From a virus (Duplodnaviria > Heunggongvirae > Uroviricota > Caudoviricetes): a stretch of DNA of 50,938 nucleotides. Below the pieces are notes generated by a model. It made no database searches, was not told where the DNA came from, and worked only from the letters and a program-made list of their open reading frames with translations. This document shows positions 1-50,938 of this stretch, piece after piece (the first letter of the stretch is position 1; every line of letters begins with the position of its first letter). The position numbers and the translations under genes were made by a program. Where the stretch lies: the IMG/VR virus record IMGVR_UViG_2636415959_000002; one strand, written 5' to 3'.

Positions 1-19
1 CTATTTGATAAATATTAAA

Positions 20-1315: not shown

Positions 1316-1334
1316 TAGTTAGTGTGGCTTTTAG

Positions 1335-1586: not shown

Positions 1587-1658
1587 CGATTTCTTTATCT
1601 CTTACATCAGACGAGCGCCGGTTGCAGAATACCAGTCACAACCGGCGACAGTTGAACA

Positions 1659-4130: not shown

Positions 4131-4223
4131 TTTGTTTTAACCTCATGACAGATTTAAGGATGAACAAATCCCTGCCATTGCTGGCATATAAGAATGAAAC
4201 CGGATATTTATTACGGAACTGTT

Positions 4224-4705: not shown

Positions 4706-5086
4706 TGTTTTTGGTTTTAACTGTTCCGCGTGCGCTTAGCCGCATTCACCGCATCACAAAATTCACTTTAAAAACGGCGGCAGAGCAGTCACGGAGTAAA
4801 ACTGATACCGCCAAACGTCACCAGAAAATTGATAACAGAGGGCGTTGCAGCGGGGTTGTCACTTAAGCGTATGGTCAACCTGACAACTCGGTGTCCTCAA
4901 CGGGGAAGGAATAACCCCGCCATACTTACCGCCGCGCCATTTCGCGGGTTGCCACAACCGGAAGCGCACGGTCGAATTAAATTTAACGACACCGTACAGT
5001 GAGACGAACTTCGCCGTGCGCTTTCGTGTTGTGTGCCTGCTTTTAACCACGTCAGGCGAGGTGGTATCCTTAAAATCACCACAGTT

Positions 5087-5704
5087 TTAAGGATTCATTA
5101 AGCAATGTCGCAACCACCAATAAATCCGCTTAAGAACATGAAAATTGATTACTGGTATAAAGCGCTTACAGTTGTTGGCGCTGCGTTGTTTGTCTTTAAT
5201 GGAACGTCTTTTTTTGACAGATATCCCGTTGTTCCATTGGGTTTTTTGTCCTCCGGCATCTTTTTTATTGGTTTGGGGGAGTGGATTAATCACCCTCTCA
5301 AAGTGAGATTTATTGGTCCTGGAGTTTGGACTCGTGGATATAATCGTTCTTCGTGCGCACTCGGTATCATCTTCGACATACTTGGTTGTTTCCTGATTGT
5401 TACAGGAGTCGTCAAGTTCTTCTGATGTAAAACCGCAAATGGGGCACGTAACGGGAATTTTGAAAAGCGTTTCTCCGGGTTCCAGAACAAAATTTTCTGC
5501 GGTCTGATTTTGCTTCTCATATTTGTGCTCCGCGTCATTGTGAGAGCACATTCTTATTCTGAGTGCCTGTTTAAACTCACTGAAGCTGAGAGCTTCTTCG
5601 CCTTCGGCAAGACCTTCGAAGTATTCTTCGTAAGCCTTTTCCATGATTGTGTCGAAATCCATATCACTCACCTGAGTTTCTTTCCAGCCAGCGACGGGCA
5701 CCAT
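5087..5704 (-). CDS. Hypothetical acidic protein with CxxC motif (3' half may be non-coding)
   Basis: 205-aa ORF; N-terminal ~100 aa acidic with CPICGF; C-terminal half is low-complexity and exactly antisense to the plus-strand membrane ORF 5105..5425. Confidence 0.3.
   Translation of the reverse strand: MVPVAGWKETQVSDMDFDTIMEKAYEEYFEGLAEGEEALSFSEFKQALRIRMCSHNDAEHKYEKQNQTAENFVLEPGETLFKIPVTCPICGFTSEELDDSCNNQETTKYVEDDTECARRTIISTSPNSRTNKSHFERVINPLPQTNKKDAGGQKTQWNNGISVKKRRSIKDKQRSANNCKRFIPVINFHVLKRIYWWLRHCLMNP
5105..5425 (+). CDS. Small integral membrane protein (about 3 predicted TM segments)
   Basis: 106-aa ORF with three hydrophobic stretches (VVGAALFVFNGTSFF, LGFLSSGIFFIGLG, ALGIIFDILGCFLIVTGVV); AGGA upstream of the ATG; antisense to the 3' half of ORF 5087..5704, so only one of the two is likely real. 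Confidence 0.35.
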   Translation: MSQPPINPLKNMKIDYWYKALTVVGAALFVFNGTSFFDRYPVVPLGFLSSGIFFIGLGEWINHPLKVRFIGPGVWTRGYNRSSCALGIIFDILGCFLIVTGVVKFF

Positions 5705-5900
5705 TTTCGGTTTTAAACGTTTTGCTTTTGGTATACGTCATCGCGGTGAACGTACCGTCCTGGTTGGGGAACACGCCACATACCGGAGATTCGCTGTTGC
5801 CAAGATCGATAGTATCCATGCTGACCTCATTTCCCCTTAACGCCGGGGTAGCGGAACAAAAACCTGCTGCATAGTTATTAAAGTTGAACCCTGCCGTCAT
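5664..5900 (-). CDS. Hypothetical 78-aa protein, first gene of the leftward early operon
   Basis: ORF with GAGG about 9 nt upstream of the ATG; lies just downstream (leftward) of the operator-like repeats at about 6000-6045. Confidence 0.4.
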   Translation of the reverse strand: MTAGFNFNNYAAGFCSATPALRGNEVSMDTIDLGNSESPVCGVFPNQDGTFTAMTYTKSKTFKTENGARRWLERNSGE

Positions 5901-5994
5901 GTTCTTACGCCTCGGGCTGGCTACTTAACCCCTGACCACTGCCTGGTAACTCGAAGTATTGCCCTGCATTCTGTGGGGCGGGGTGGGTGGCAGG

Positions 5995-6045
5995 CATATA
6001 ATGTACTTTGCGTTCATTGTTGTAAAGTACTATTAGTACATTTTG
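5995..6045. promoter_or_regulatory. Operator-like repeats (OL-like) left of the repressor gene
   Basis: A/T-flanked GTAC motifs: aatgtacttt (~6001), aaagtactat and tagtacattt (~6024-6042) forming an imperfect palindrome; the same motif recurs in the repressor/cro intergenic region. Confidence 0.35.
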
Positions 6046-6116
6046 TGTGTAAAAAAATGAGATGGGATAAAGTGAAGCACAAACCCGGAGGAAGGCGCTA
6101 CCGGATTTATGCTGGT

Positions 6117-6536
6117 TTAAGAGGCTTTTTGTTTTTTCTTTCGTGCTAACTCTTCGTAAATTGCATTGTACTTCTGTTTTTTCTCTTCAAGAGTTTTTAA
6201 AAGTTCATCTGTCTCACTGTCAGGGAGCTCGTCCAGAAGGTCAATGATGATTTTTTGTCTTGGATTTAACTCCTGATAGAAACGTACCTGTCCACTTTCT
6301 TCTGTATCCTCTCCCAAAAGATAGGTTGGTGTTGTTCCTATTAGTGTTGCTAATTCCCTTAATTTCTCCCGGCGAGGAATTGTTTCGCCATTAAACCATT
6401 TGCTAACCGCTTTTGGTGTTAATTTCATTCGACGGGCAATTTCTGCCTGCCTTCCATGTTGTTCATAACCAGCGTTTTCACAGGCTAGCGCAAGCCTACT
6501 GGCGAACTCTTTACGCGCTTTATCTTCATGAACCAT
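6117..6536 (-). CDS. Prophage repressor, XRE-family HTH, non-LexA-like
   Basis: 139-aa ORF with N-terminal helix-turn-helix (QAEIARRMKLTPKAVSKWFNGETIP) and no S24 peptidase domain; divergent from a Cro-like gene. Confidence 0.75.
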   Translation of the reverse strand: MVHEDKARKEFASRLALACENAGYEQHGRQAEIARRMKLTPKAVSKWFNGETIPRREKLRELATLIGTTPTYLLGEDTEESGQVRFYQELNPRQKIIIDLLDELPDSETDELLKTLEEKKQKYNAIYEELARKKKQKAS

Positions 6537-6615
6537 AAGTTCAATGATATTCGCTCTTGAATGTACTGTCAGTTCTGTTATAGCATGTACTCAAAGTTCA
6601 CATTGTGAGGGTGAT
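6537..6615. promoter_or_regulatory. Divergent promoter/operator region (OR-like) between repressor and Cro-like gene
   Basis: 79-bp intergenic region with two copies of atgtact (~6561-6567 and ~6585-6591) matching the repeats at ~6000-6042. Confidence 0.5.
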
Positions 6616-6870
6616 ATGAACCAGAAAACACTTGAAGATGTAATCAAAACTGTTCGCGTTGCTGTTGTGGCCGACGTTTGTGGTGTCAGCCAAAGAGCAA
6701 TCTATAAATGGATGGATAACGGAAAATTGCCTCGCACAGAATATACCGGCGAAACAAATTACGCTGAAAAAATCGCTCTTGCATCAAACGGATTATTTTC
6801 TGCCGATGCAATTTTAACTATTGGCAGGAATAAAACTACTACGAAAAAGCTGATGGGAGTTGATTCATGA
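6616..6870 (+). CDS. Cro-like HTH DNA-binding protein (YdaS-like)
   Basis: 84 aa from internal start MNQKTLEDV with GAGGG RBS; HTH segment VADVCGVSQRAIYKWMDNGKLP; divergent from the repressor. Confidence 0.7.
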   Translation: MNQKTLEDVIKTVRVAVVADVCGVSQRAIYKWMDNGKLPRTEYTGETNYAEKIALASNGLFSADAILTIGRNKTTTKKLMGVDS

Positions 6871-7292
6871 AAATCAAGCATGAACACATCCGCATGGCGA
6901 TGAATGCCTGGGCGCATCCGGACGGCGAAAAAGTACCGGCTGCGAAAATTACCAAAGCGTATTTCGAGCTGGGAATGACGTTCCCGGAACTGTATGACGA
7001 CAGCCATCCGGAAGCCCTGGCTCGCAATACTCAGAAAATTTTCCGCTGGGTGGAGAAAGACACCCCTGATGCGGTTAAAAAAATTCAGGCGTTGTTACCA
7101 GCTATCGAAAAAGCAATGCCACCTCTGCTGGTGGCCCGAATGCGCAGTCATAGCTCAGCCTATTTTCGGGAACTAGTGGAGACGCGGGAACGACTGGTGA
7201 GAGACGCTGATGATTTTGTCGCAGTGGCGATCGCTGGTTTCAACCAGATGAATCGTGGTGGCCCTGCAGGAAATATTGTGGCTGTGCATTGA
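6867..7292 (+). CDS. ydaT: YdaT-like (CII-like) regulator of Rac-type prophages
   Basis: 141-aa ORF MKIKHEHIRMAMNAWAHPDGEKVPAAKITKAYFELGMTFPELYDD..., recalled as closely matching E. coli Rac YdaT; overlaps the stop of the Cro-like gene (operon coupling). Confidence 0.65.
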   Translation: MKIKHEHIRMAMNAWAHPDGEKVPAAKITKAYFELGMTFPELYDDSHPEALARNTQKIFRWVEKDTPDAVKKIQALLPAIEKAMPPLLVARMRSHSSAYFRELVETRERLVRDADDFVAVAIAGFNQMNRGGPAGNIVAVH

Positions 7293-7363
7293 CTCGCAAT
7301 ATTCATACCGGATCACTTCCGGCAATTTATGAGTAAAAAGATTCGGTATCAAAAGAGGTGAGT

Positions 7364-8434
7364 ATGGCTAACGCCTGGCTCAGATTATGGCATGACATGC
7401 CAAATGACCCTAAGTGGCGAACAATTGCCAGGGTGTCAGGGCAGCCAATTGCAACAGTGATGGCAGTGTATATCCACCTCTTGGTGAGCGCGTCACGAAA
7501 TGTCACGCGAGGTCACATTGATGTCACGACAGAAGATTTGGCAAGTGCGCTCGACGTGACAGAAGAGGTAATTGATTCAATTTTGCAGACGATGCAGGGG
7601 CGGGTACTTGATGGTGATTTAATCACTGGATGGGAAAAACGCCAGGTGCTTAAAGAGGACAATGGCAATATTTCGCAAACCGCAAAATCTCCTGCAGAGC
7701 GCAAGAGGGCGCAGCGAGAGAGGGAAAGAAAGCGGGAACAAAATGGCGATTGTCACGGCGCGTCACGAAATGTCACGCACATGTCACGACGAGTCACGAC
7801 AGATAAAGATACAGATAAAGATACAGATCAAGAAGATCAAAACACTATGGTCCATGGCGTAAAAAACGCCACGAACCAGGCAGGGGATGTTCAGACCGTC
7901 AATCTTGGTCAGCCAGCAGGCACGACACCGGAAGCCGATTCAGCGTATGCGCTGAAAGCCGATTCGGGCGCTGTGCAGCAGGTGATGACCGCAAGGCCGG
8001 AGCAATCACACCAACTGCAGCAGCCCGAAGCCGATTCCGCCATTCAGCGGGAAGCCGATCGGGTAGTCCCGGAAAACACCGGGCAGTCTGTGGGACGAGT
8101 GGATTATCCGGATGTGTTCGAACAGGTCTGGCGGGAGTACCCGTTGCGTGCCGGAGCAAACCCGAAGAAATCCGCTTTCAGTGCCTGGAAGGCCAGATTA
8201 CGCGAGGGGGTGCCACCAGAGGCCATGCTGGATGGCGTGAGGCGTTACGCAAGATACTTGGCGGCTACCGGGAAAACGGGAACGGAATTTGTTCAGCGAG
8301 CGACGACGTTTTTTGGACCGGACCGGAATTTTGAGAACCCCTGGTTGCTCCCGGTAAGCGGCACGAACAACCAGCGTTGTGTGAATCATATTTCTGAACC
8401 GGATAACGAAATTCCGCCGGGCTTCAGGGGGTAA
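7364..8434 (+). CDS. ydaU: Replication initiation protein, YdaU/DUF1376-like
   Basis: 356 aa from ATG with AAGAGG RBS; N-terminus MANAWLRLWHDMPNDPKWRTIARVSGQPI typical of the YdaU family; iteron arrays lie inside the coding sequence. Confidence 0.65.
   Translation: MANAWLRLWHDMPNDPKWRTIARVSGQPIATVMAVYIHLLVSASRNVTRGHIDVTTEDLASALDVTEEVIDSILQTMQGRVLDGDLITGWEKRQVLKEDNGNISQTAKSPAERKRAQRERERKREQNGDCHGASRNVTHMSRRVTTDKDTDKDTDQEDQNTMVHGVKNATNQAGDVQTVNLGQPAGTTPEADSAYALKADSGAVQQVMTARPEQSHQLQQPEADSAIQREADRVVPENTGQSVGRVDYPDVFEQVWREYPLRAGANPKKSAFSAWKARLREGVPPEAMLDGVRRYARYLAATGKTGTEFVQRATTFFGPDRNFENPWLLPVSGTNNQRCVNHISEPDNEIPPGFRG
7490..7560 (+). repeat. Iteron cluster 1: GTCACG/GTCACA hexamers at about 10-bp phasing
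   Basis: gtcacg at ~7492, 7502, 7523, gtcaca at ~7512, and an inverted copy cgtgac at ~7555. Confidence 0.5.
7750..7832 (+). repeat. Iteron cluster 2 (five GTCACG at 10-11 bp spacing) followed by a duplicated 12-mer, putative replication origin
   Basis: gtcacg at ~7752, 7762, 7772, 7783, 7793; then agataaagatac x2 (~7801-7824) and an A-rich tail; the 19-mer cgtcacgaaatgtcacgc is shared with cluster 1. Confidence 0.5.
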
Positions 8435-8474
8435 GTGTTAATTTCTGGTCATGAGGTAATTTTCAGGAGGGCTT

Positions 8475-8897
8475 GTGGCAAAAGTTTTTACACAAGAAGA
8501 GCGGGAAAAAATTAAAGGGCAGGTTGTTGAACTCGTACGCCAGAGTGGGCGCGAGACGTTAAGACAACTGGAAACTAAAACTGGGGCAACAAAATATCTG
8601 ATGAACGTTCTGGCCAGAGAGCTGGTTGCCAGTGGCGATGTATACAACTCTGGTTACGGGTTATTCCCGTCTGAACAGGCGCGTAAGGACTGGCAAAATG
8701 CCCGTAAAAAGCTCTCAAGGGCAAAGCTGAAGAAACCATCTGCGGTTGATCCGGACCTTATCTGGTCATTACCTGATGGAGAAATACGTCGTTACGACAG
8801 GCGTCATAATATGATTTGTACTGAGTGTCGTAAAAGCGAAGTTATGCAGCGCATATTGTCGTTTTATCAGGGGGATGTTCGGTATTTATTGAAGTGA
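8475..8897 (+). CDS. Hypothetical protein (GTG start)
   Basis: 140-aa ORF with AGGAGG shortly upstream of GTG; basic; CxxC near the C-terminus; no family recognised. Confidence 0.45.
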   Translation: MAKVFTQEEREKIKGQVVELVRQSGRETLRQLETKTGATKYLMNVLARELVASGDVYNSGYGLFPSEQARKDWQNARKKLSRAKLKKPSAVDPDLIWSLPDGEIRRYDRRHNMICTECRKSEVMQRILSFYQGDVRYLLK

Positions 8898-9159
8898 CGA
8901 GATTAAAGTGCATTAGTTCAGATGCAAATTGACATTTTGTGGCACAGGGTAGAGCTAGCGTGGTTGTCCGCTTTGTGCCAACAGCGGACATTATGGAAGG
9001 TCAGAGTTAAAGATTAAAATGGGATGCTGTGTGTTTTCTCCAGGTTTTGCTCTATACCTTTCGGGATACTCCACCGACAGAATACGAAAATCAACATTAT
9101 CAACGGCTCGAAGTGTCTAGATTATCCATGGCAATTCATGGGAAATCCCATCCAACGGC

Positions 9160-10551
9160 TTATGCTTCATGTTGCTTTTTGAGATCGCTTCTAGCATAGC
9201 TCCACTCAATAATGTTGTCGGGTCGTTGCTGATCGAAAAGGATACGGGATTCAATACCATTACCTAAAAAGCTGGTATTCCCATCTACGTAAGAAGCTAT
9301 CCCTTGTGAACCAACACGAAGAATATTTTCTAATGGCTGCTTTGTTCTTGCTGCATCGCTAAGGAGATATAAACCCGGGTACGTTTTGTTAGCACGGTGA
9401 AAAAAAAGTTCATTGTCAAAACACATGACGATGATTATTTGTCCCGACATGAGATCGGAGAGCATTTCAGTTGGCAGATGCAAACTCATAAATGGTCGAG
9501 ACAAAGGGTCAAAGAATGAATCATTTATATTCACAACAGGGCTTTTTATACCGAGACTATCCATCCATCCATTGAAGGCAACAAAGCCCATTTCAGAATC
9601 ACGGTACATACCTAAGAACAAACATTCATCAATAGTATCAATTGCCCAATTTTTTCCTCCGCGAATAATCTCCCACATTTTAACTAAGCGGTGGGTATAA
9701 AATTCAGACGGATGATCTATCTCATTGATTTTAACTTTAGACTGATGAAAGTTGTCAAAGCCCTCGCCAGTATTAATCGCCTCCAGAACATTCATGCCAC
9801 GAATGATTTGCCTTTTTATGCGATTAAATTGCTTAACATCATTATCAGGCATATTGTTAATGAAGTTTTCTTCAAAGTGCGGACATTCTGAGATAACAGA
9901 AAATTCAGCAGCTTCATAAAGCTCATTATTCTTTTCACCTGTTTTAACTTCCACGAGCTGGAAGCCATCCAGTAGATTAAAGGTGACTAAATCTCCCACA
10001 TGAACAAATGTGCTCATGTCAGAGACAATCGCTACGGAGTGTTTGTCCTGGTTGATAAGATCGGCTGCGACCATAGAATCAATTATGTTATCTTCTGATA
10101 GATTGTCATTGCTTGCATTAATAGGTAAACGCCGCAAACTAGAGTGTTCTTCATCAAGAATGCTCCAAATTATTGAGTCAATACAACGGCGAAGAATAAG
10201 AATTTCAAATTTTTTTAAACTTATTTCATCAATACACTTTTCTTTATTTTCTTTATCCTTGTTTCGATGGTGCTCTTTTTTTTCAGTTTCCAATCTTTTT
10301 ATATCTCTCAGCCGAATAATAATCTCAAAAGATATGATTTTTTGTGAGTCTTTCCAATTTTTGAGACAGGTTTCATACTCTGCAAGAAAATCCTCATCAT
10401 TGGAAGGTAGTTCTTGAATTGGATTCCCTCCCCTTATCATTTTGGCAAGTGCATGCATTAAAGATACATAATGAGGCGATAAAATTGTCCAAAACTTCCT
10501 AAACGGTTTGTACTTTTCAAGAAAAGTTGACTCATCAGTATAATTCATCAT
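9160..10551 (-). CDS. Uncharacterised 463-aa protein, downstream partner of the AbiH-like gene; possible PD-(D/E)xK nuclease-like core
   Basis: ORF 9160..10557; likely ATG at 10551 (MMNYTDEST) with GAGG upstream; AT-rich codon usage; segment FVHVGDLVTFNLLDGFQLVEVKTGEKN fits D-x13-E-x-K; no Walker motif or other signature recognised. Confidence 0.6.
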   Translation of the reverse strand: MMNYTDESTFLEKYKPFRKFWTILSPHYVSLMHALAKMIRGGNPIQELPSNDEDFLAEYETCLKNWKDSQKIISFEIIIRLRDIKRLETEKKEHHRNKDKENKEKCIDEISLKKFEILILRRCIDSIIWSILDEEHSSLRRLPINASNDNLSEDNIIDSMVAADLINQDKHSVAIVSDMSTFVHVGDLVTFNLLDGFQLVEVKTGEKNNELYEAAEFSVISECPHFEENFINNMPDNDVKQFNRIKRQIIRGMNVLEAINTGEGFDNFHQSKVKINEIDHPSEFYTHRLVKMWEIIRGGKNWAIDTIDECLFLGMYRDSEMGFVAFNGWMDSLGIKSPVVNINDSFFDPLSRPFMSLHLPTEMLSDLMSGQIIIVMCFDNELFFHRANKTYPGLYLLSDAARTKQPLENILRVGSQGIASYVDGNTSFLGNGIESRILFDQQRPDNIIEWSYARSDLKKQHEA

Positions 10552-10640
10552 AACCAAACCTCATTCCTCTTATCTATTTTCCTCAAGGTATAAAATACCA
10601 GCCTTTTTTACATAATTATAGTTATAATATGAAGTCTCAT

Positions 10641-11510
10641 TCAGATATCTTCATACTGTACGTAAGAAATATTTGAGCCTCTGATACCATAATCTTCTAA
10701 ACTGCCTGATTTTTTCTCACCTCTATATAAAGCAACTATCCATCGAGCATTTTCTTGGATGCTTTTATTTATTTCAGTAAAGTATTCACCGTCAACTTCG
10801 GCGAGCGAGTGGCCTAAAACGATGACCTCGTCCACATTTTTAAGCGATGAGAAAAAAACGTTTTCTTCTTTAATTATGTCTTCGCTGGGCTTGAATGTAT
10901 TACCGAAGTATTCGTTTATTCTGTCGTATGCCTCTGCTATTCTTGTATCTTGATCCGGTCCTATATATGGATTTAGTGACTTTTCCACCCTAAAACTATG
11001 ACCAAGTATGAGATCGTCATCGTAACTACAATTGCCGTGAATATGTATGATTTGCTCGTCTGGAACGGCATAGATCTGCTGCAAGGTATTTGTATAATTA
11101 AATGAAAAATAGATGCTTTCTCTTGGTATGGGCGGGATGTATTGCTTAGGATTGTAAGCATCGGCTATGTTAATCCCTTTAACCCAATCAGCGAATTGCT
11201 CCTTCAAACGAGCTGACAGCATTTGTGTGATTTTATTTACTTCATATTGGTAATCGTGATGATAAGCATCGCTCCAATCATCGGTATTGTATGAAGCCAA
11301 AAATATCTCACTGTTTTGAAGGATAAGCTCATAATCAATTTCACCTAAAGCATTTTCTAACTCATTCCACTCGTCCCCAGCAGGAATGTATTCTTCTATC
11401 GCGTCATATAGATCTTGGTCATTTTTTTCTACATACGACTTAAAGTGCTTGTATCCTGTTGGTAAGCCATGACGCATGTCAAATCCATTTCCTATTATGT
11501 AAAGCCTCAT
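10641..11510 (-). CDS. AbiH-family (abortive infection) protein
   Basis: 289 aa from internal ATG (MRLYIIGNGFDMRHGLPTGYKHF) with AAGGGA RBS; the IIGNGFD-x-HGL-x-T-Y motif is the N-terminal signature I recall for the AbiH family; AT-rich. Confidence 0.7.
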   Translation of the reverse strand: MRLYIIGNGFDMRHGLPTGYKHFKSYVEKNDQDLYDAIEEYIPAGDEWNELENALGEIDYELILQNSEIFLASYNTDDWSDAYHHDYQYEVNKITQMLSARLKEQFADWVKGINIADAYNPKQYIPPIPRESIYFSFNYTNTLQQIYAVPDEQIIHIHGNCSYDDDLILGHSFRVEKSLNPYIGPDQDTRIAEAYDRINEYFGNTFKPSEDIIKEENVFFSSLKNVDEVIVLGHSLAEVDGEYFTEINKSIQENARWIVALYRGEKKSGSLEDYGIRGSNISYVQYEDI

Positions 11511-11968
11511 TGTTTTTCCCTTAGTCGAATTGTATAAAAATACTAACATGGCCTGCTCCACGTTGACTACTATCCCCTCCTTTGAGTAATGCCTTCATCA
11601 GATGTAACAACATTTGCGAGCTTCCACAGTTCGCTCAAAGCGGACTAGAAGGTTAGCTTGCGTCGGACTTGGCGTATTTAAAGAAGTGCTGGTGGAGACT
11701 GGTTGTTGTGTTCCATTTCTACAGAACAAAATCACAGAAACTATACCCAATAGTTATATTGAATCAATGATGAGACAGCCTCATATTTATCAGGACTGGT
11801 GTACGTCCAATACAGGAGGTTGTCGTGCTGGTTCTCAAATGTGCGCTAGCTATTGCGGCTGTAATGGCAATTTATTGTCTTGCTGTTGTTCTTACGGATC
11901 GCCTTTCTGATTGATTTTATATTGGCGAGGTGACGTGAGTTAAGTAGAATTGCTGCGGGTGCTTGAGG

Positions 11969-12004
11969 CTATCTGCCTCAGGCATGAACACCAAAGGCAG
12001 ATAG
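11969..12004 (+). promoter_or_regulatory. Perfect 10-bp inverted repeat in the hokD 5' leader (probable mRNA fold)
   Basis: ctatctgcct ... aggcagatag separated by a 16-nt loop, about 120 nt upstream of the hokD ATG. Confidence 0.3.
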
Positions 12005-12125
12005 AGAAAAGCCCCAGTTAACATTACGCGTCCTGCAAGACGCTTAACATTAATCTGAGGCCAATTTCATGCTAGACACATGTAGGTTAGCCTCTTACGT
12101 GCCGAAAGGCAAGGAGAAGCAGGCT

Positions 12126-16954: not shown

Positions 16955-17265
16955 TCCAATGACTCAAGGCTATGAACTGGTTGTGAAAGGAGTCCGTAAT
17001 TTTGAGAATAAAGTTACGGTAACTGTAGCCTTACAGGACAAAGAACGCTTTGACGGTGAAATTTTTGGCCTGGATGTCGCCATGGACCGTGTTGAAGGAG
17101 CTACGCTGGAGTTTTATGAGGCAGCAGCCAGAATGAGCGTCCGGCAAGTCTTCCTGGAAGTAGCAGAAAAATTGTCAGAAAAGTTGAGTCTTATCTGCAG
17201 CATCAGTACTCCTTTAAGATTGAAAATCCTGCCAATAAGCACGAGCGTCCTCATCATAAATATCT

Positions 17266-18293
<1,028 letters not shown>

Positions 18294-20955: not shown

Positions 20956-21475
20956 ATGGAAGTCAACAAAAAGCAGCTGGCTGACATTTTCGGTGCGAGT
21001 ATCCGTACCATTCAGAACTGGCAGGAACAGGGAATGCCCGTTCTGCGAGGCGGTGGCAAGGGTAATGAGGTGCTTTATGACTCTGCCGCCGTTATAAGAT
21101 GGTATGCCGAAAGGGATGCTGAAATTGAGAACGAAAAGCTGCGCCGGGAAGTTGAAGAACTGCGGCAGGCCAGCGAGGCAGATCTCCAGCCAGGGACTAT
21201 TGAGTACGAACGCCATCGACTTACGCGTGCGTAGGCCGACGCACAGGAACTGAAGAATGCCAGAGACTCCGCTGAAGTGGTGGAAACCGCATTCTGTACT
21301 TTCGTGCTGTCGCGGATCGCAGGTGAAATTGCCAGTATTCTCGACGGGATCCCCCTGTCGGTGCAGCGGCGTTTTCCGGAACTGGAAAACCGACATGTTG
21401 ATTTCCTGAAACGGGATATCATCAAAGCCATGAACAAAGCAGCCGCGCTGGATGAACTGATACCGGGGTTGCTGA

Positions 21476-21501
<26 letters not shown>
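20956..21501 (+). pseudogene. nu1: Terminase small subunit Nu1 interrupted by an in-frame amber (TAG) codon
   Basis: ORFs 20956..21234 and 21277..21501 are in the same frame and together reconstitute a 181-codon lambda Nu1-like protein (MEVNKKQLADIFGASIRTIQNWQEQGMP ... LSEYIEQSG); single TAG at 21232-21234. Confidence 0.85.
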
Positions 21502-30472: not shown

Positions 30473-30895
30473 ATGTTCCTGAAAACCGAATCATTTGAAC
30501 ATAACGGTGTGACCGTCACGCTTTCTGAACTGTCAGCCCTGCAGCGTATTGAGCATCTCGCCCTGATGAAACGGCAGGCAGAACAGGCGGAGTCAGACAG
30601 CAACCGGAAGTTTACTGTGGAAGACGCCATCAGAACCGGCGCGTTTCTGGTGGCGATGTCCCTGTGGCATAACCATCCGAAGAAGACAAAGCTGCCTTCC
30701 ATGAATTAAGCCGTTAAACAGATTGAGCAGGAAGTGCTTACCACCTGGCCCACAGAGGCAATTTCTCATGCTGAAAACGTGGTGTACCGGCTGTCCGGTA
30801 TGTATGAGTTTGTGGTGAATGATGCTCCTGAACAGGCAGAGGACGCCGGGCCTGCAGAGCCTGTTTCTGCGGGAAAGTGTTCGACGGTGAGCTGA
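30473..30895 (+). pseudogene. G: Tail assembly chaperone G interrupted by an in-frame ochre (TAA) codon
   Basis: ORF stops at TAA 30707-30709 after ...KKTKLPSMN; the same frame continues AVKQIEQEVLTTWPTEAISHAENVVYRLSGMYEFVV...SAGKCSTVS to TGA at 30893-30895, restoring a 140-codon gpG; the G-T slippery heptamer G GGA AAG (~30871-30877) is intact. Confidence 0.8.
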
Positions 30896-40460: not shown

Positions 40461-43400
40461 GTGAATATGGCAGTAAAGATTTCAGGTGTACTGAAAGACG
40501 GCACAGGAAAACCGGTACAGAACTGCACAATCCAGCTGAAAGCAAAACGTAACAGCACCACGGTGGTGGTGAACACGGTGGCCTCAGAAAATCCGGATGA
40601 AGCCGGGCGTTACAGCATGGACGTTGAGTACGGTCAGTACAGCGTTATTCTGTTGGTGGAAGGATTCCCGCCGTCACATGCCGGGACCATCACCGTGTAT
40701 GAAGACTCCCGACCCGGTACGCTGAATGATTTTCTCGGTGCCATGACGGAGGATGATGCCCGGCCAGAGGCACTGCGCCGTTTTGAGCTGATGGTGGAAG
40801 AGGTGGCGCGTAACGCGTCCGCGGTGGCACAGAACACGGCAGCCGCGAAGAAGTCAGCCGGCGATGCCGGCACATCAGCCCGTGAGGCGGCAACCCATGC
40901 GACTGATGCTGCAGGCTCAGCACGCGCAGCCAGCACGTCAGCCGGACAGGCCGCGTCGTCGGCTCAGTCAGCGTCTTCCAGCGCAGGAACGGCATCAACA
41001 AAGGCCAGTGAAGCATCGAAAAGTGCTGCTGCTGCAGAGTCCTCAAAAAGCGCGGCAGCTACCAGTGCCAGTGCCGCGAAAACGTCAGAAACGAATGCCG
41101 CAGCGTCACAACAATCAGCAGCCACTTCTGCATCCACCGCGACCACGAAAGCGTCAGAAGCTGCCACCTCAGCCCGGGATGCGGCGGCCTCAAAAGAGGC
41201 AGCGAAATCATCAGAAACGAACGCATCCTCGAGCGCCAGTAGCGCAACTTCCTCGGCAACGGCGGCAGGAAATTCCGCGAAGGCGGCAAAAACGTCCGAG
41301 ACGAACGCTAAGTCTTCTGAGACGGCAGCGGGACAGAGCGCCTCAGCTGCGGCAGGCTCAAAAACAGCGGCTGCATCATCTGCCAGCGCCGCGTCAACAA
41401 GTGCCGGGCAGGCCTCAGCCAGTGCCACCGCCGCCGGAAAATCGGCAGAAAGCGCCGCATCATCCGCTTCAACAGCCACAACGAAGGCTGGCGAAGCCAC
41501 TGAACAGGCCAGCGCAGCAGCGAGTTCTGCTTCCGCAGCGAAGACATCCGAAACGAACGCGAAAGCGTCGGAAACCAGCGCAGAATCCTCAAAAACGGCT
41601 GCCGCATCGTCAGCCAGTTCGGCGGCGTCATCGGCATCATCGGCGTCTGCTTCAAAAGATGAGGCGACCAGACAGGCGTCAGCAGCGAAGGGCAGCGCCA
41701 CGACAGCATCCACGAAGGCGACAGAGGCAGCTGGCAGTGCGACGGCGGCAGCACAGAGCAAAAGTACGGCGGAATCCGCGGCAACGCGCGCCGAGACAGC
41801 GGCAAAACGGGCAGAGGATATTGCATCCGCCGTGGCGCTTGAGGATGCGAGCACGACGAAAAAGGGGATAGTACAGCTCAGCAGTGCGACCAACAGTACG
41901 TCTGAAACGCTGGCGGCAACGCCAAAGGCAGTAAAATCAGCCTATGACAATGCAGAGAAACGTCTGCAGAAAGACCAGAACGGCGCTGATATACCCGATA
42001 AGGGACGCTTCCTGAACAACATTAACGCGGTCAGTAAAACAGACTTTGCTGATAAGCGTGGTATGCGTTATGTGCGGGTTAACGCTCCTGCAGGTGCAAC
42101 ATCTGGAAAATATTACCCTGTTGTTGTTATGCGTTCTGCTGGCTCAGTAAGCGAACTGGCATCAAGGGTCATTATCACCACGGCAACGCGAACCGCAGGC
42201 GATCCGATGAATAACTGCGAGTTTAACGGATTTGTTATGCCTGGTGGCTGGACTGACAGGGGGCGTTATGCTTATGGAATGTTCTGGCAATATCAAAACA
42301 ATGAACGAGCCATCCACTCAATAATGATGAGTAATAAGGGCGATGATTTGCGCTCTGTGTTCTATGTTGATGGCGCTGCTTTCCCTGTTTTTGCGTTTAT
42401 CGAAGATGGCCTGTCAATATCCGCACCTGGTGCTGATCTCGTTGTTAATGATACGACCTATAAGTTTGGGGCAACAAATCCAGCGACTGAATGTATCGCG
42501 GCGGACGTTATCCTTGATTTTAAGAGTGGGCGTGGTTTTTATGAGTCTCATTCGTTAATCGTTAACGATAATTTGTCGTGCAAAAAACTTTTTGCCACAG
42601 ACGAAATTGTAGCGCGTGGTGGTAATCAGATTCGAATGATAGGTGGGGAGTATGGTGCATTATGGCGTAATGATGGCGCTAAAACTTACCTGCTGCTTAC
42701 CAATCAAGGTGATGTTTATGGTGGCTGGAATACATTAAGACCGTTTGCTATTGATAACGCAACCGGCGAACTGGTTATTGGAACCAAACTGTCCGCAAGT
42801 CTGAACGGTAATGCATTAACAGCAACAAAGCTGCAAACGCCAAGACTGGTTTCTGGTGTTGAGTTTGATGGTTCCAGAGATATTACTTTAACCGCCGCGC
42901 ATGTGGCTGCTTTTGCCAGAAGGGCAACGGATACATATGCCGATGCGGATGGTGGCGTTCCCTGGAATGCCGAATCAGGTGCTTACAATGTCACCCGCTC
43001 TGGCGACAGCTATATTCTGGTTAACTTCTATACCGGAGTCGGAAGTTGCCGGACCTTGCAGATGAAGGCGCATTACAGAAATGTTGGTCTGTTCTACCGT
43101 TCTTCAAGAGACGGTTATGGTTTTGAGGAAGACTGGGCAGAAGTTTATACCTCGAAAAATCTTCCACCAGAAAGCTACCCAGTCGGCGCACCAATCCCGT
43201 GGCCATCAGATACCGTTCCGTCTGGTTATGCCCTGATGCAGGGGCAGACTTTTGACAAATCTGCTTACCCGAAACTTGCAGCCGCTTATCCGTCAGGCGT
43301 GATCCCTGATATGCGTGGCTGGACGATTAAGGGCAAACCTGCCAGTGGTCGGGCCGTATTGTCTCAGGAACAGGACGGCATTAAATCGCATACCCACAGC

Positions 43401-43817
43401 GCCAGCGCATCCAGTACGGATTTGGGGACGAAAACCACATCGTCGTTTGATTACGGCACTAAATCCACGAATAACACCGGGGCGCATACCCATAGTGTTA
43501 GCGGTACGGCTGCTTCAGCCGGTGCACATACCCATTCGATGACATTTGTTTCAGGTGGTTCCAGTGGTGCTCCGGGAAGTGGAGCATCTGATTATTCTAA
43601 ATACAGTGTTAACACTTCTTCTGCAGGCGCTCATACGCACTCTGTATCGGGTACTGCTGCAAGCGCAGGTGCACACGCACATACTGTGGGTATTGGTGCT
43701 CATACGCACTCCGTTGCGATTGGTTCACATGGACACACCATCACCGTTAACGCTGCTGGTAACGCGGAAAACACCGTCAAAAACATCGCATTTAACTATA
43801 TTGTGAGGCTTGCATAA
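40461..43817 (+). CDS. stf: Side tail fibre protein (Stf) with Ala/Ser-rich repeats and His-containing C-terminal repeats
   Basis: 1118 aa; conserved lambdoid Stf N-terminus ([26 protein letters not shown]...); long [11 protein letters not shown] repeat region; C-terminal GAHTHS-type repeats. Confidence 0.9.
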
Positions 43818-44334
43818 TGGCATTCAGAATGAGTGAACAACCACGGACCATAAAAATTTATAATCTGCTGGCCGGAACTAATGAATTTATTGGTGAAGGT
43901 GATGCATATATTCCGCCTCATACAGGTCTGCCAGCAAACAGTACCGATATTGCACCGCCAGATATTCCGGCTGGCTTCGTGGCTGTTTTCAACAGTGATG
44001 AGTCATCGTGGCATCTCGTTGAAGATCATCGGGGTAAAATGGTTTATGACGTGGCTTCCGGCGACGCGTTATTTATTTCTGAACTCGGTCCGTTACCGGA
44101 AAATGTTACCTGGTTATCGCCGGAAGGGGAGTTTCAGAAGTGGAACGGTACAGTCTGGGTGAAGGATACGGAAGCAGAAAAACTGTTCCGGATCCGGGAG
44201 GCGGAAGAAACAAAAAACAGCCTGATGCAGGTAGCCAGTGAGCATATAGCGGTAAGCGTCGTCTGAGTACCGTCTGGTCCCGAATCCAGGATCCTGTAAC
44301 TTAAGCACCCACTTATTTTGCAGGTGGACACCTC

Positions 44335-44718
44335 ATGCGCGCTAAAGAAAGACTTCCCCGGAAACACTATTCCCCTGAATTCAAAATGGAACTGGTCAGG
44401 CTGGCTCTTGAAGAAGAAGGCAGTATTGCCGCACTGGCCCGGAAACATGACGTCAATGATAACCTGCTCTTTAAATGGATAAGGCTCTGGCAGCGTGAAG
44501 GGCGGGTCTGTCGGCCCCGAAAAAACTCATCGTCGCTTCCTGCCCTGATACCCGTGCAGCTTCAGGCGGGCTCTTCTCTCCCAACCTTCGAACTACCATC
44601 CTGCTCTCCTCCCGCTACCTGCCACATAAAATGTCGGGGAGGAGAAATAACACTGACTCATCCCTCTGCTGAACTCATGAGCACTGTCCTGCGCGAACTG
44701 ATGCGGGGGCCGGTATGA
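44335..44718 (+). CDS. IS66 accessory protein (orf1/TnpA-like, HTH)
   Basis: 127 aa, MRAKERLPRKHYSPEFKMELVRLALEEEGSIAALARKHDVNDNLLFKWI... Confidence 0.8.
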   Translation: MRAKERLPRKHYSPEFKMELVRLALEEEGSIAALARKHDVNDNLLFKWIRLWQREGRVCRPRKNSSSLPALIPVQLQAGSSLPTFELPSCSPPATCHIKCRGGEITLTHPSAELMSTVLRELMRGPV

Positions 44719-45062
44719 TAAATCTTCCCGCAGGCACAAAAATCTGGCTGGTTGCCGGTATCACCGATATGCGCAACGGCTTCAATGGCCTCGCCGCAAA
44801 GGTGCAGACCGCGCTGAAAGATGACCCGATGTCCGGCCACGTCTTCATCTTCCGGGGACGCAGCGGCAGTCAGGTAAAACTGCTCTGGTCCACCGGCGAT
44901 GGTCTGTGCCTGCTGACAAAGCGACTGGAACGTGGTCGCTTCGCCTGGCCCTCAGCCCGCGATGGCAAAGTGTTCCTGACGCCGGCGCAACTGGCGATGC
45001 TGATGGAAGGTATCGACTGGCGACAGCCAAAGCGGTTACTGACATCCCTGACCATGTTGTAG
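44715..45062 (+). CDS. IS66 Orf2 (TnpB-like) protein
   Basis: 115 aa, MINLPAGTKIWLVAGITDMRNGFNGLAAKVQTALKDDPMSGHVFIFRGRSG..., hallmark IS66 Orf2 sequence. Confidence 0.85.
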   Translation: MINLPAGTKIWLVAGITDMRNGFNGLAAKVQTALKDDPMSGHVFIFRGRSGSQVKLLWSTGDGLCLLTKRLERGRFAWPSARDGKVFLTPAQLAMLMEGIDWRQPKRLLTSLTML

Positions 45063-45111
45063 CGCTCTTTATCCTGGTTGTCGCAGAATAAGCCTGGTAA
45101 AATACAGGCTT

Positions 45112-46647
45112 ATGAACGATACCTCTTCTGACGACATCCTTCTGCTGAAACAGCGCCTGGCCGAACAGGAAGCGTTGATCCACGCCCTGCAGGAAAAGCT
45201 GAGCAACCGGGAACGCGAAATAGACCATCTGCAGGCGCAACTGGATAAGCTGCGCCGGATGAACTTCGGCAGTCGTTCCGAAAAGGTATCCCGCCGTATC
45301 GCGCAAATGGAAGCTGACCTGAACCTGCTGCAGCAGGAAAGCGATACGCTGACCGGCCGGGTGGATGACCCGGCAGTGCAGCGCCCGCTGCGTCAGACCC
45401 GCACCCGCAAACCGTTCCCTGAGTCACTCCCACGGGATGAGAAGCGGCTGCTGCCGACTGAGCCGTGTTGCCCGGAGTGCGGTGGTTCGCTGAGTTACCT
45501 GGGTGAGGATGCCGCCGAACAGCTGGAGCTGATGCGCAGCGCCTTCCGGGTTATCCGGACAGTCCGTGAAAAGCATGCCTGCCGTCGGTGCGATCGCATC
45601 GTTCAGGCCCCGGCTCCTTCGCGCCCCATCGAACGGGGGATCGCCGGACCGGGGCTGCTGGCCCGAGTGCTGACCTCAAAGTATGCAGAGCACACACCGC
45701 TGTATCGCCAGTCGGAGATCTATGCCCGCCAGGGTGTAGTGTTGAGTCGTTCTGTACTGTCGGGCTGGGTGGATGCGTGTTGTCGTCTGCTGGCACCGCT
45801 GGATGAAGCCCTTCAGCACTATGTCCTGACCGACGGCAAACTCCATGCTGACGATACGCCTGTCCCGGTGCTGTTGCCGGGCAATAAGAAGACGAAGACC
45901 GGGCGCTTATGGACGTACGTTCGAGACGACCGCAACGCCGGATCAGCGCTGGCCCCCGCAGTGTGGTTCGCTTACAGCCCGGACAGAAAAGGTATCCACC
46001 CTCAGACCCATCTTGCAGGCTTCAGTGGCGTACTGCAGGCTGATGCCTACGCCGGGTTCAACGAGCTCTACCGCGACGGCCATATAAAGGAAGCCGCGTG
46101 CTGGGCCCATGCCCGCCGAAAAATCCACGATGTTCACGTCCGTACCCCGTCAGTCCTGACGGAGGAGGCGCTGAAACGGATCGGCGAGCTGTATGCCATC
46201 GAGTCGGAGATCAGAGGTAAAAGAGCAGAGGAACGGCAGGCAGTCCGGCACCAAAAAGTGCTGCCGCTGCTGGCGTCACTGGAGGGGTGGCTGCGGGAGA
46301 AACAGAAAACCCTCTCAAGGCACTCAGAACTGGCGAAGGCGTTCGGGTATGCGCTGAACCAGTGGCCGGCGCTGATCCGCTATGCAGAAGATGGCTGGGT
46401 GGAGGTGGATAATAACATTGCCGAAAACGCCCTACGACGGGTCAGTCTGGGGAGAAAAAACTGGCTGTTCTTCGGCTCGGATCATGGTGGTGAGCGCGGT
46501 GCGTCACTGTACAGTCTTATCGGGACGTGCAAATTAAACGGCGTGGATCCGGAACGCTATCTGCATTATGTACTTGATGTCATCGCCGACTGGCCTGTGA
46601 ACCGGGTGGGTGCTCTGCTCCCGTGGCGGGTTACTCTGCCTGCCTGA
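45112..46647 (+). CDS. IS66-family transposase (DDE)
   Basis: 511 aa with N-terminal leucine zipper, CxxC...CxxC zinc ribbon (CPECGG...CRRCD) and DDE core. Confidence 0.9.
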
Positions 46648-46934
46648 CCAGCTTCACTTCGTCAATACGGTTCTCACTGCACGCTTACATATAGCGCCAC
46701 TTCAGGATGCTGTAGATCTGGAAATCGCAACGGAGGAAGAAACCTCATTGCTGGAAGCCTGGAAAAAGTATCGGGTGTTGCTGAACCGTGTTGATACATC
46801 AACTGCACAGGATATTGAATGGCCAGCACTGCCGTAGGGTAAAACATATAAATTCTATAATTAGATGTATCTTTCCATTTACGGCAAGGAAGGGGGCTTG
46901 GAAGACGTAAAGCATCTCACACCGAGATTATTTT

Positions 46935-47525
46935 TTATATGTCAGGTGTCTGAAGTTTTGCTTTGGCTCTTAAAATGGTTTGCCGCGAGGTTTTGAATTC
47001 CCGGGCAATGGCACTTATACTTACACCTGACTTAATTCGTTCGAATACCACCTGTTTCTGTTCTTCATTTAACACAGGTGGTCGACCAAAACGTTTCCCT
47101 GCGCCGCGGGCTCTTACTATCCCGGAATGAGTGCGTTCAAGTAAAAGGTCTCGTTCAAATTCAGCGACTGCTGAAATTACGTGCATCATCATTTTTCCTG
47201 TTGGACTGGTCAGGTCAATGCCCCCCAATGCTAAGCAATGCACTCTGATACCTGTTTCGGTCAGTTGTTCCACTGTTTTCCTGATATCCATTGCATTACA
47301 ACCAAGGCGATCCAGTTTTGTCACAATCAATTGATCACCACATTTCAGGCGAGCAAGCAACCGGTTAAAACCAGGACGCTCACTGGTTGCTGCTGAGCTG
47401 CTAATGTGTTCTTCGATTATTTGCTGAGGTTTGATTTTAAAACCTGCACTTTCGATTTCCCGGCGTTGATTTTCGGTGGTCTGATCCAGCGTTGATATCC
47501 GACAGTAAGCAAAAATTCGAGACAT
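46935..47525 (-). CDS. pinQ: Serine DNA invertase (Pin/Gin/Hin family)
   Basis: 196 aa, [29 protein letters not shown]... with catalytic Ser in RIST and C-terminal HTH; matches PinR/PinQ as recalled. Confidence 0.9.
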
Positions 47526-50180: not shown

Positions 50181-50240
50181 ATTCAGGTGATGCTGCCAAC
50201 TTACTGATTTAGTGTATGATGGTGTTTTTGAGGTGCTCCA

Positions 50241-50516
50241 GTGGCTTCTGTTTCTATCAGCTGTCCCTCCTGTTCAGCTACTGACGGGGTGGTGCGTAAC
50301 GGCAAAAGCACCGCCGGACATCAGCGCTATCTCTGCTCTCACTGCCGTAAAACATGGCAACTGCAGTTCACTTACACCGCTTCTCAACCCGGTACGCACC
50401 AGAAAATCATTGATATGGCCATGAATGGCGTTGGATGCCGGGCAACTGCCCGCATTATGGGCGTTGGCCTCAACACGATTTTACGTCACTTAAAAAACTC
50501 AGGCCGCAGTCGGTAA
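50241..50516 (+). CDS. insA: IS1 InsA
   Basis: 91 aa [43 protein letters not shown]... Confidence 0.9.
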
Positions 50517-50938
50517 CCTCGCGCATACAGCCGGGCAGTGACGTCATCGTCTGCGCGGAAATGGACGAACAGTGGGGCTATGTCGGGGCTAAATCGCGCC
50601 AGCGCTGGCTGTTTTACGCGTATGACAGGCTCCGGAAGACGGTTGTTGCGCACGTATTCGGTGAACGCACGATGGCGACGCTGGGGCGTCTTATGAGCCT
50701 GCTGTCACCCTTTGACGTGGTGATATGGATGACGGATGGCTGGCCGCTGTATGAATCCCGCCTGAAGGGAAAGCTGCACGTAATCAGCAAGCGATATACG
50801 CAGCGAATTGAGCGGCATAACCTGAATCTGAGGCAGCACCTGGCACGGCTGGGACGGAAGTCGCTGTCGTTCTCAAAATCGGTGGAGCTGCATGACAAAG
50901 TCATCGGGCATTATCTGAACATAAAACACTATCAATAA
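50435..50938 (+). CDS. insB: IS1 InsB reading frame (expressed as InsAB' by -1 frameshift), complete to its stop
   Basis: ORF in the -1 frame relative to insA, containing the IS1 transposase catalytic region; ends ...IKHYQ* at 50938. Confidence 0.85.

Follow-up and report, generated by a model that had tools for sequence, protein, structure and literature searches.

A complete IS66-family insertion sequence interrupts the tfaQ-type gene of a prophage at the Qin locus of Escherichia coli

The stretch of viral DNA analysed here (50,938 bp, hereafter the window) carries a complete IS66-family insertion sequence (IS) within the tail fibre assembly gene tfa. We consider it very likely, with a probability of about 0.96 for the whole account, that this IS entered the tfaQ-type gene of a full-length lambdoid prophage residing at the Qin locus through ordinary DDE transposition. 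The anatomy of the element, the identity of its surroundings to an empty site, its own identity to copies elsewhere, and the junction common to several datasets were all observed directly. In the proposed course of events, staggered cleavage at the target ATATAGCG followed by repair would have produced an 8-bp duplication. The inserted DNA would then stop Tfa after residue 145, with the addition of VSVV, and would detach the C-terminal 46 residues, and the interrupted allele has been inherited, being present in E. coli G3/10 and seven further public datasets. This is a textbook, biologically ordinary insertion of a common, known element. As a clean case in which an IS has turned a prophage structural gene into a pseudogene, it represents a well-understood step in prophage decay and has little scientific weight.

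Table 1. Coordinates in the window of the interrupted tfa gene, the inserted element and associated features.
Feature	Position	Strand	Basis
Integrase	20-1315		
tfa 5′ part, codons 1-145 (...SEHIA), including the left duplication copy	43817..44251	+	ORF list; Caudo_TAP
Chimeric ORF now encoded, 149 aa: Tfa 1-145 + VSVV + stop	43817..44266	+	ORF list
Target duplication ATATAGCG, left copy	44244..44251	.	Sequence inspection
Complete IS66-family IS	44252..46688	+	Ends, GC content, 100% identity over 1-2437 to E. coli copies
Left terminal inverted repeat, GTAAGCGTCGTCTGAGTACCGTCTGG	44252..44277	+	19/26 versus right end, first 8 perfect
tnpA, 127 aa, HTH accessory protein, WP_001201739.1	44335..44718	+	HTH_Tnp_1, 2.9e-13, 50 bits
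tnpB, 115 aa, IS66 Orf2-type accessory protein, WP_000609174.1	44715..45062	+	TnpB_IS66, 1.7e-38, 131 bits
tnpC, 511 aa, DDE transposase, WP_001000409.1	45112..46647	+	DDE_Tnp_IS66, 2.5e-105
Chimeric 75-aa ORF, GTG start in IS right end, running into the tfa 3′ fragment	46610..46837	+	ORF list
Right terminal inverted repeat, reverse complement GTAAGCGTGCAGTGAGAACCGTATTG	46663..46688	-	Pairs with left end
Target duplication ATATAGCG, right copy	46689..46696	.	Sequence inspection
tfa 3′ part, codons 146-191 + stop, orphaned conserved C-terminal segment	46697..46837	+	Rejoined gene

The element comprises 2,437 bp and is present once in the window, between the two copies of ATATAGCG. It starts with GTAAGCGT and finishes with ACGCTTAC, which are ends of the IS66 type, and its imperfect terminal inverted repeats open with 5′-GTAAGCG, as is found in the IS66 family. 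When the two ends were compared with each other as inverted repeats, 8 of the outermost 8, 17 of 22, and 19 of 26 positions were paired. The GC content of the element is 58.4%, versus 43.7% for its flanks. Three consecutive ORFs, all intact and all on the plus strand, are arranged in the order tnpA-tnpB-tnpC, and their matches to the Pfam families HTH_Tnp_1, TnpB_IS66 and DDE_Tnp_IS66 score far above the gathering cut-offs; the tnpA assignment is also backed by PGAP annotation on identical copies. The tnpA stop and the tnpB start overlap in an ATGA (context GGTATGATAA at positions 44713-44722), and a 49-bp spacer lies between tnpB and tnpC. Within TnpC, the DDE_Tnp_IS66 match (residues 175-461, 352 bits) covers profile positions 1-283 of 284 and is accompanied by matches to LZ_Tnp_IS66 (39-110), zf-IS66 (118-161) and DDE_Tnp_IS66_C (468-505). 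The Pfam domains, the ATGA overlap and the terminal sequences bear out the original prediction that this is an IS66-family element with three ORFs. An 8-bp target duplication had likewise been proposed, with re-inspection of the flanking repeats set beforehand as a refutation test, and the repeats proved to be identical. The sequence ATATAGCG occurs only twice in the window, both times flanking the element, where about 0.78 occurrences per strand are expected by chance. Duplication of 8 bp is a reported property of IS66 (PMC6778807).

The tfa frame reads through ...S E H I A, the last codon being GCG, and then passes into the left end of the IS, which supplies VSVV and the stop codon; the break thus falls at a codon boundary. 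Because the IS plus one repeat amounts to 2,445 bp (3 × 815), the 3′ part of tfa remains arithmetically in the same frame, and both the codon-boundary break and the return of the frame are as had been described. A small correction to the earlier account is that the native part of Tfa that is kept comprises 145 codons, with 46 residues lost. Deletion of the element and one repeat, such that positions 43817-44251 are joined to 46697-46837, yields a 576-bp tfa gene with a 191-aa ORF. In the rejoined protein, residues 72-191 match positions 1-130 of the 131-position Caudo_TAP profile (PF02413) with 148.9 bits, and the gene spans the whole profile of the chaperone family to which tfaQ, lambda Tfa and Mu TFA belong; the match is split here, and residues 72-145 of the 5′ part cover profile positions 1-84. 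The rejoined gene is identical at 576 of 576 bp to the intact, annotated tfaQ in ECONIH4 and in at least 14 other genomes, and its product is 100% identical to tfaQ WP_000885610.1. The two halves do join into a continuous Tfa, as anticipated, which was the other refutation test set beforehand. On comparison with ECONIH4, which has the empty site, the window aligns at 99.94% and 99.91% identity on the two sides of the element, and the two aligned blocks overlap by the duplicated target only.

Copies of the element are widespread. Many E. coli chromosomal copies are 100% identical over the 2,437 bp, and identity of at least 99% was recorded in 492 records. Identical copies are also carried on plasmids of seven genera (those named are Klebsiella, Citrobacter, Enterobacter, Serratia, Salmonella and Kosakonia), and the exact TnpC protein is encoded on at least 1000 contigs. 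Perfect 8-bp target duplications surround six of eight other identical copies checked. The targets of these six are unrelated and comprise csrD, silP, pcoS, a sulfatase gene, a DUF2776 gene and an IS30 copy; the remaining two copies do not have matching flanks, presumably as a result of later recombination. No consensus is apparent among the seven perfect duplications formed by these six and that of the window. Metabolic, resistance, CRISPR and plasmid genes are further sites at which identical copies are found. The occurrence of identical copies at many sites, with their own duplications and on both chromosomes and plasmids of several genera, suggests that the element is transposition-competent. 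In several Enterobacterales genera, this intact IS circulates at 100% identity on chromosomes and on resistance plasmids and, given such identity across genera, it is probably active and has probably spread recently.

The relationship of the element to named IS was assessed by proxy, using TnpC and PGAP-labelled copies of named IS in place of ISfinder reference sequences. By protein search, the closest named relatives are the E. coli elements ISEc8 and ISEc22, whose PGAP-labelled family copies are 87.3-87.9% identical in TnpC. These elements have in common with ours the tnpA-tnpB-tnpC layout, a length of about 2.4 kb, GTAAGCG termini and an 8-bp target duplication. Nucleotide identity to the commonest E. 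coli relatives is about 80-90%. By ISfinder practice, isoforms of one IS are about 95% or more identical in nucleotides and 98% or more in amino acids. ISKpn24 from Klebsiella, which is of a similar size class and has a plasmid-borne Enterobacterales distribution, has a TnpC that is about 86% identical and is a distinct element. Because the identity to ISEc8 and ISEc22 lies under the usual same-IS level, the element is, as judged from the PGAP-labelled copies, a separate and distinct member of the ISEc8/ISEc22/ISKpn24 clade. The protein-level search ruled out ISEc8, ISEc22, ISKpn24, ISKox1, ISEc23 and ISCro1 as its name. The PGAP name for its TnpC (Table 1) is the generic ‘IS66 family transposase’, and the UniRef and cluster names are generic too. 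The right end of the element agrees at 25 of 32 positions with an end of another IS66-family element, which is carried by ECONIH4.

ISSgsp1 is another named IS66-family element, and a context of rcnR-rcnA-pcoE-IS-pcoS-mcr-9 has been published (PMC9495039). We did not find this context around two plasmid copies that are 100% identical to the element, where an unrelated IS30/IS110 context was present instead. In the first 148 kb of pKPN-262, the plasmid cited for this element, pcoS and pcoE are uninterrupted, and two IS66-family elements with a 512-aa TnpC align at about 84% nucleotide identity over positions 480-2437 only. Since several IS66-family elements are carried by pKPN-262, this plasmid cannot confirm the ISSgsp1 name. 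The founding and best-studied members, IS66 and IS679, are distant in sequence and come from other hosts (an Agrobacterium Ti plasmid and the EPEC plasmid pB171, respectively). Both reportedly have a three-ORF organisation and GTAA-type ends. The 8-bp target duplication is a feature that they have in common with the element (PMC6778807).

An exact look-up of the 149-aa chimeric protein located the tfa::IS junction on eight public contigs or datasets at 99.7-100% identity, among them both isolate and metagenome datasets. One of the eight is the probiotic E. coli G3/10 (Symbioflor 2), a 1956 isolate with a contig that matches the window at every position. Searches of complete E. coli RefSeq genomes and of GTDB species representatives did not recover the junction. 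The insertion had been called recent, and the lack of decay agrees with this description in that the target duplication is perfect, the IS does not differ from many copies elsewhere (100% identity), and the flanks match those of empty-site relatives at 99.9% identity. However, an identical junction in eight datasets, including that from a 1956 strain, leaves ‘recent’ with a relative meaning only and points to a stably inherited lineage marker rather than a new or private event. For the G3/10 (Symbioflor 2) lineage of E. coli, the junction provides a molecular marker that is both stable and specific.

With regard to function, the split Tfa keeps about 60% of the Pfam domain, together with the variable N-terminal part, in one ORF. 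PMC9608196, citing North et al. 2019, ascribes trimerisation and assembly to the C-terminal domain of TFAs, which is conserved. In this chaperone family, the segment corresponding to the 46 residues split off here forms the helical trimerisation/assembly domain. Fibre binding by the Tfa C-terminus was considered and rejected, as binding to the fibre is attributed in the literature to the N-terminal domain, which is variable (PMC9608196). The domain loss suggests that Tfa function has been lost and, with the trimerisation/assembly segment split off, the side tail fibres (Stf) should no longer assemble. Side tail fibres are not required for plaque formation by lambda-type phages, and lambda PaPa lacks Stf. 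For this reason, the tfa lesion would be non-lethal even in an intact prophage. The 75-aa chimeric ORF at the right end of the IS was called as a gene with a Caudo_TAP match in the G3/10 contig, and it is probably meaningless.

The prophage lies at the Qin locus, in the interval from rspB to ydfJ; one of its ends carries int, and the opposite end carries tfaQ-pinQ-ydfK-ynfT-ydfJ′. Over the span from int (window 1-2784) to ydfJ′, the window can be aligned with the annotated prophage of strain 14EC017, and it also aligns with ECONIH4. The head and tail genes of the prophage are otherwise intact and carry two nonsense mutations: an amber codon in nohA (small terminase; Q93*, CAG to TAG at 21232) and an ochre codon in G (tail chaperone; E79*, GAA to TAA at 30707). 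Both were verified, and the tfa insertion accordingly takes the place that had been claimed for it as the third lesion in the virion genes. Given the nohA and G mutations, the insertion is most likely a neutral event in a decaying or already disabled prophage, although it could have been the first inactivating hit among the three. The three lesions support the view that no infectious, fully assembled virions can be released by this 50-kb prophage, a point that bears on the safety assessment of a probiotic strain.

Other explanations for the arrangement were weighed against simple transposition. IS elements are multi-copy, short-read contigs break inside this IS, and the right junction is present in one public contig only, all of which would be compatible with an assembly artefact in which a repeated element was misplaced in tfa without a real insertion. 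Nevertheless, the G3/10 contig, a 1.38-Mb product of a 454 assembly for which PCR and fosmid walking were used in finishing, spans the whole IS, and the left tfa-to-IS join is identical in seven further, independent datasets from different projects. Moreover, a perfect duplication and an exact empty-site match would not come from mis-assembly, and we regard an artefact as barely conceivable. A rearrangement, in which tfa parts that originated in different places or prophages were brought together by recombination between two copies of the IS, merits equally little credence. The two copies with non-matching flanks indicate that such events occur, and E. coli has several tfa paralogues (at a median of three places per genome). 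However, the 8-bp sequences on both flanks of the element are identical, the halves rebuild a single intact allele at 100%, and both flanks are collinear, at 99.9% identity, with one reference locus, stf-tfa-pinQ-ydfK-ydfJ.

If transposition into tfaQ is accepted, the insertion might still have been selected, either as an adaptive silencing of fibre assembly or through IS signals acting on the 75-aa ORF or in antisense into pinQ. This seems very unlikely. The IS genes are all co-directional with tfa and converge on pinQ, a chimeric ORF with the Tfa C-terminal segment exists, and the insertion is stably retained in a repeatedly sampled lineage, but a neutral marker in a clonal lineage is equally expected to persist, the two other independent inactivating mutations fit relaxed selection, and the element inserts into many unrelated genes. 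Only marginally better is the prospect that the location is non-random, reflecting a preference of IS66-family elements for tail fibre assembly genes. This idea draws on ECONIH4, in which a different IS66-family element (TnpC of 530 aa) splits a different tfa and is flanked by a perfect 8-bp duplication, GATTAACT. We rejected an IS66 hot spot in tfa because the two cases differ in position (codon 145 in the window and about codon 50 in ECONIH4, which are non-homologous) and their duplications are unrelated. Identical copies of the element occupy varied genes with no consensus among their targets, and E. coli prophages contain many tfa genes, which are dispensable, such that neutral insertions pile up in them. 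A slender chance, slightly above that for either idea by itself, is left for a non-random location in the window and ECONIH4 or for selective retention of tfa::IS in the G3/10 lineage. Selective retention, if true, would exemplify prophage domestication in which, for example, fibre assembly is blocked and cargo such as an AbiH-type defence gene is kept.

We also looked for Pin/Gin-type crossover inverted repeats around tfa as a test for an invertible segment. Weak pairs only were present (14-29 nt, 71-94% complementarity), and none convincingly brackets the gene. Compared with Qin of E. coli K-12, the prophage occupies the same locus and does not differ in its right-end genes (tfaQ, pinQ, ydfK, ynfT and ydfJ′), and the Qin cargo genes cspB/F/I, relBE, hokD, essD and rrrQ are also found in the near-identical reference prophage. 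Unlike Qin, the prophage in the window is full-length (about 50 kb) with complete lambda-like head and tail genes, and what disables it are point lesions and an IS rather than large deletions. The gene order stf-tfa-pin is common to the window, Qin, Rac and e14.

The tfa gene of the prophage, which encodes a tail-fibre-assembly chaperone, is disrupted by a simple insertion of an IS66-family element with an 8-bp target-site duplication (TSD). Direct reading of nucleotides 43600–47400, together with a script, located the two identical ATATAGCG copies and confirmed exactly the 2437-bp element and the 44244–46696 span of the original prediction. The sequence ATATAGCG occurs only twice in the 50,938-bp window, wherein a given 8-mer is expected ~0.78 times per strand, and the probability that chance alone would place a copy at both ends of a segment bounded by inverted repeats is ~1.5e-5. 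The element begins with GTAAGCGT and ends with ACGCTTAC, and, compared as inverted repeats, the two termini agree at 8/8, 17/22, and 19/26 positions. Its GC content is 58.4% versus 43.7% for the 2-kb flanks, and the window carries no further copy, full or partial. The assignment to the IS66 type with three ORFs was borne out by Pfam domains, and all three reading frames are unbroken, with the TGA of tnpA overlapped by the ATG of tnpB (ATGA). TnpC carries LZ_Tnp_IS66, zf-IS66, DDE_Tnp_IS66 (352 bits, full profile), and DDE_Tnp_IS66_C domains. The protein accessions listed in the table derive from PGAP annotation of identical copies of the element, and for each of the three proteins at least 1000 contigs are on record.

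Coordinates of the tfa insertion and of other prophage features in the window
Feature	Coordinates	Strand	Remarks
Integrase	20-1315		
Early region	about 2785-12100		not common to reference prophage
465-aa ORF	9160-10557	-	no Pfam match
AbiH-family gene	10641-11561	-	abortive infection; Pfam AbiH, 233 bits
ydfR	16959-17269		lysis cassette; function unknown
nohA	20956-21501		small terminase
G	30473-30895		tail assembly chaperone
stf	40461-43817		directly upstream of tfa; 1,118-aa side tail fibre (Stf)
Truncated tfa ORF	43817-44266		Tfa residues 1-145, then VSVV and stop from IS end
Left TSD copy	44244-44251		ATATAGCG
IS66-family element	44252-46688		2,437 bp
tnpA	44335-44718	+	127 aa; HTH_Tnp_1; exact match WP_001201739.1
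tnpB	44715-45062	+	115 aa; TnpB_IS66; exact match WP_000609174.1
tnpC	45112-46647	+	511 aa; exact match WP_001000409.1
Chimeric ORF (predicted)	46610-46837		75 aa; starts inside IS, runs into tfa 3' fragment; probably not meaningful
Right TSD copy	46689-46696		ATATAGCG
pinQ	46935-47525	-	196 aa
IS1 copy	50186-50938		runs past window end

When the element and one ATATAGCG copy are deleted, 43817–44251 joins 46697–46837 to give a 576-bp, 191-codon ORF. The two halves indeed form a continuous Tfa, as had been proposed, because the rejoined gene matches, at 100% identity from end to end, intact genes that bear the annotation 'tfaQ: tail fiber assembly protein' in ECONIH4, ECONIH5, ABWA45, STEC17-190, the CX and 0H series, and other genomes. 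The empty site of E. coli ECONIH4 aligns with the window in two blocks, the left one (8,365 bp, 99.94%) ending at 44251 and the right one (3,498 bp, 99.91%) beginning at 46688. On the ECONIH4 side, these blocks share the duplicated target and one further base that matches by coincidence, which is the trace left by simple transposition after a staggered cut of 8 bp and not that of a rearrangement. The ambiguous C at 46688 could be assigned because 100%-identical copies elsewhere all end in ACGCTTAC. Note that the break does fall at a codon boundary and the 3' end does return in frame, but both are arithmetic coincidences because element plus TSD amount to 2,445 bp, or 3 × 815.

The insertion cuts off the conserved C-terminal 46 residues of Tfa. 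Against the Caudo_TAP profile, the truncated protein matches only positions 1–84 of 131 (54 bits); once the halves are rejoined, the match extends over positions 1–130 (148.9 bits). TFA chaperones are modular: fibre binding falls to a variable N-terminal domain, and trimerisation and assembly are driven by a conserved helical domain at the C-terminus (PMC9608196, summarising North et al. 2019). Because the element severs this assembly domain, we infer from the sequence that chaperone function would be lost and that the Stf fibre would not be assembled.

The annotation sources consulted gave no specific IS name for the element. ISSgsp1 is an IS66-family element of Enterobacterales plasmids (PMC9495039), and no tie between that name and the window sequence was found. 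Relatives of TnpC were judged from PGAP labels on tblastn matches to plasmids, sampled down the ranking. Copies labelled ISEc8 (87.7–87.9% identity), ISEc22 (87.3–87.8%), and ISKpn24 (~86%) were closest, followed by ISKox1 (65%), ISEc23 (63%), and ISCro1 (60%). These identities point to a separate element, and thus to a distinct member of the ISEc8/ISEc22/ISKpn24 clade.

Megablast placed copies with at least 99% identity in 492 complete-genome records of E. coli and in 332 plasmid records, and 100%-identical plasmid copies occur in Klebsiella, Citrobacter, Enterobacter, Serratia, Salmonella, and Kosakonia, which suggests very recent spread across genera. We extracted the flanks of eight E. coli copies, each 100% identical to the element. 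Perfect 8-bp duplications (TAACATAG, CCTTAATA, CATTTATC, ATGCAGGA, CGTAGTGC, and AACCATTG) bound six of them, in unrelated targets: an IS30 copy, csrD (NZ_CP061754.1), a sulfatase gene, the silver ATPase gene silP (NZ_CP081762.1), a DUF2776 gene, and the copper sensor gene pcoS (NZ_CP073719.1). The other two, one in a CRISPR array (NZ_CP059283.1) and one between unrelated genes, lack matching flanks, presumably through secondary recombination. An 8-bp TSD is thus routine for this element, as reported for IS66 itself (PMC6778807), and flank comparison revealed no obvious target consensus. Given the TSDs at other sites and the recent spread, the element is probably active.

The junction itself is absent from complete RefSeq E. 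coli genomes and GTDB species representatives. However, a search for exact matches to the 149-aa chimeric protein, which is specific to the junction, recovered eight contigs from different sources: JPKI01000002.1 (GCA_000768425.1, 1.38 Mb), five isolate read sets (SRR12376429, SRR31797526, ERR4406778, SRR15843227, and SRR31115341), and two human-associated ENA metagenome assemblies (ERZ28569034 and ERZ28658925). All are 99.7–100% identical to the window, and JPKI01000002.1 shows no mismatch over 12,450 bp. The short-read contigs end 13–38 bp inside the element, as would be predicted for repeated sequence. The JPKI00000000 assembly belongs to E. coli G3/10 (DSM 16443), one of the constituents of the Symbioflor 2 probiotic; this strain was isolated from a healthy donor, has been in storage since 1956, and was sequenced on the 454 platform, with PCR and fosmids used for finishing (PMC4358396). 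The window thus derives from G3/10 itself or from a very near relative. The insertion is therefore a stably inherited lineage marker, neither a private nor a laboratory event. The view that it is recent holds in the evolutionary sense, since element, TSD, and flanks show no divergence, but its age is probably at least decades. Because the junction appears in metagenome assemblies, it could serve to track the G3/10-type lineage.

These independent sightings, one in a finished contig, exclude an assembly artefact, and the matching TSD copies and collinear flanks likewise exclude an IS-mediated rearrangement. A second case in ECONIH4 (NZ_CP026399.1, 597592–600546) might suggest that IS66-family elements favour tfa genes: there, a different family member (TnpC of 530 aa) splits another tail-fibre-assembly gene, that of a Mu-like prophage, at about codon 50 with a perfect 8-bp TSD, GATTAACT. 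Yet positions and target sequences differ between the two cases, and other copies of our element sit in many unrelated genes, which makes such a preference very unlikely. That the insertion is functional or was selected is likewise very unlikely: nothing supports it, and the co-occurring nonsense mutations in nohA and G point to relaxed selection. The feature is real and the initial interpretation is supported: an already known and widely distributed element has, by an ordinary, familiar type of event, disrupted a dispensable gene in a decaying prophage. What value remains lies in marking the strain lineage and in adding to the evidence for a defective prophage in this probiotic strain.

The window holds a full-length lambdoid prophage at the Qin locus. 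After the integrase come the lysis genes, nohA, terL, portal, protease, D, E, FI, FII, Z, U, V, G, T, H, M, L, K, I, J, lom, stf, and tfa, followed by pinQ, ydfK, ynfT, and ydfJ'. Lesions were called against the near-identical prophage of E. coli 14EC017, wherein all these genes are annotated intact. Only nohA and G depart from full-length, in-frame head and tail genes, so it was correct to count tfa as a third lesion among the virion genes. The nohA gene carries an amber Q93* (CAG to TAG at 21232) and is otherwise identical to its intact homologue. An ochre E79* (GAA to TAA at 30707) cuts G at codon 79 of 140 and should abolish it. In lambda, the slip site of the G–T frameshift is close to the 3' end of G; if the same holds here, the G–T fusion would probably be abolished as well.

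In ydfR, a 1-nt deletion near 17184 puts the final ~28 codons out of frame when compared with the allele of 14EC017. The intact pinQ encodes a Gin/Pin-type serine invertase and lies convergent to tfa, 97 bp downstream. No convincing pair of crossover-site inverted repeats was found around stf or tfa, so PinQ seems to have no invertible fibre segment to act on here. The IS1 copy, which shares 99.5% identity with IS1A of 14EC017, starts 43 bp beyond the ydfJ' stop in the ydfJ–ydfI intergenic region, exactly where collinearity with ECONIH4 ends. In the early region, the AbiH-family gene and the adjoining 465-aa ORF are possibly a two-gene defence cargo.
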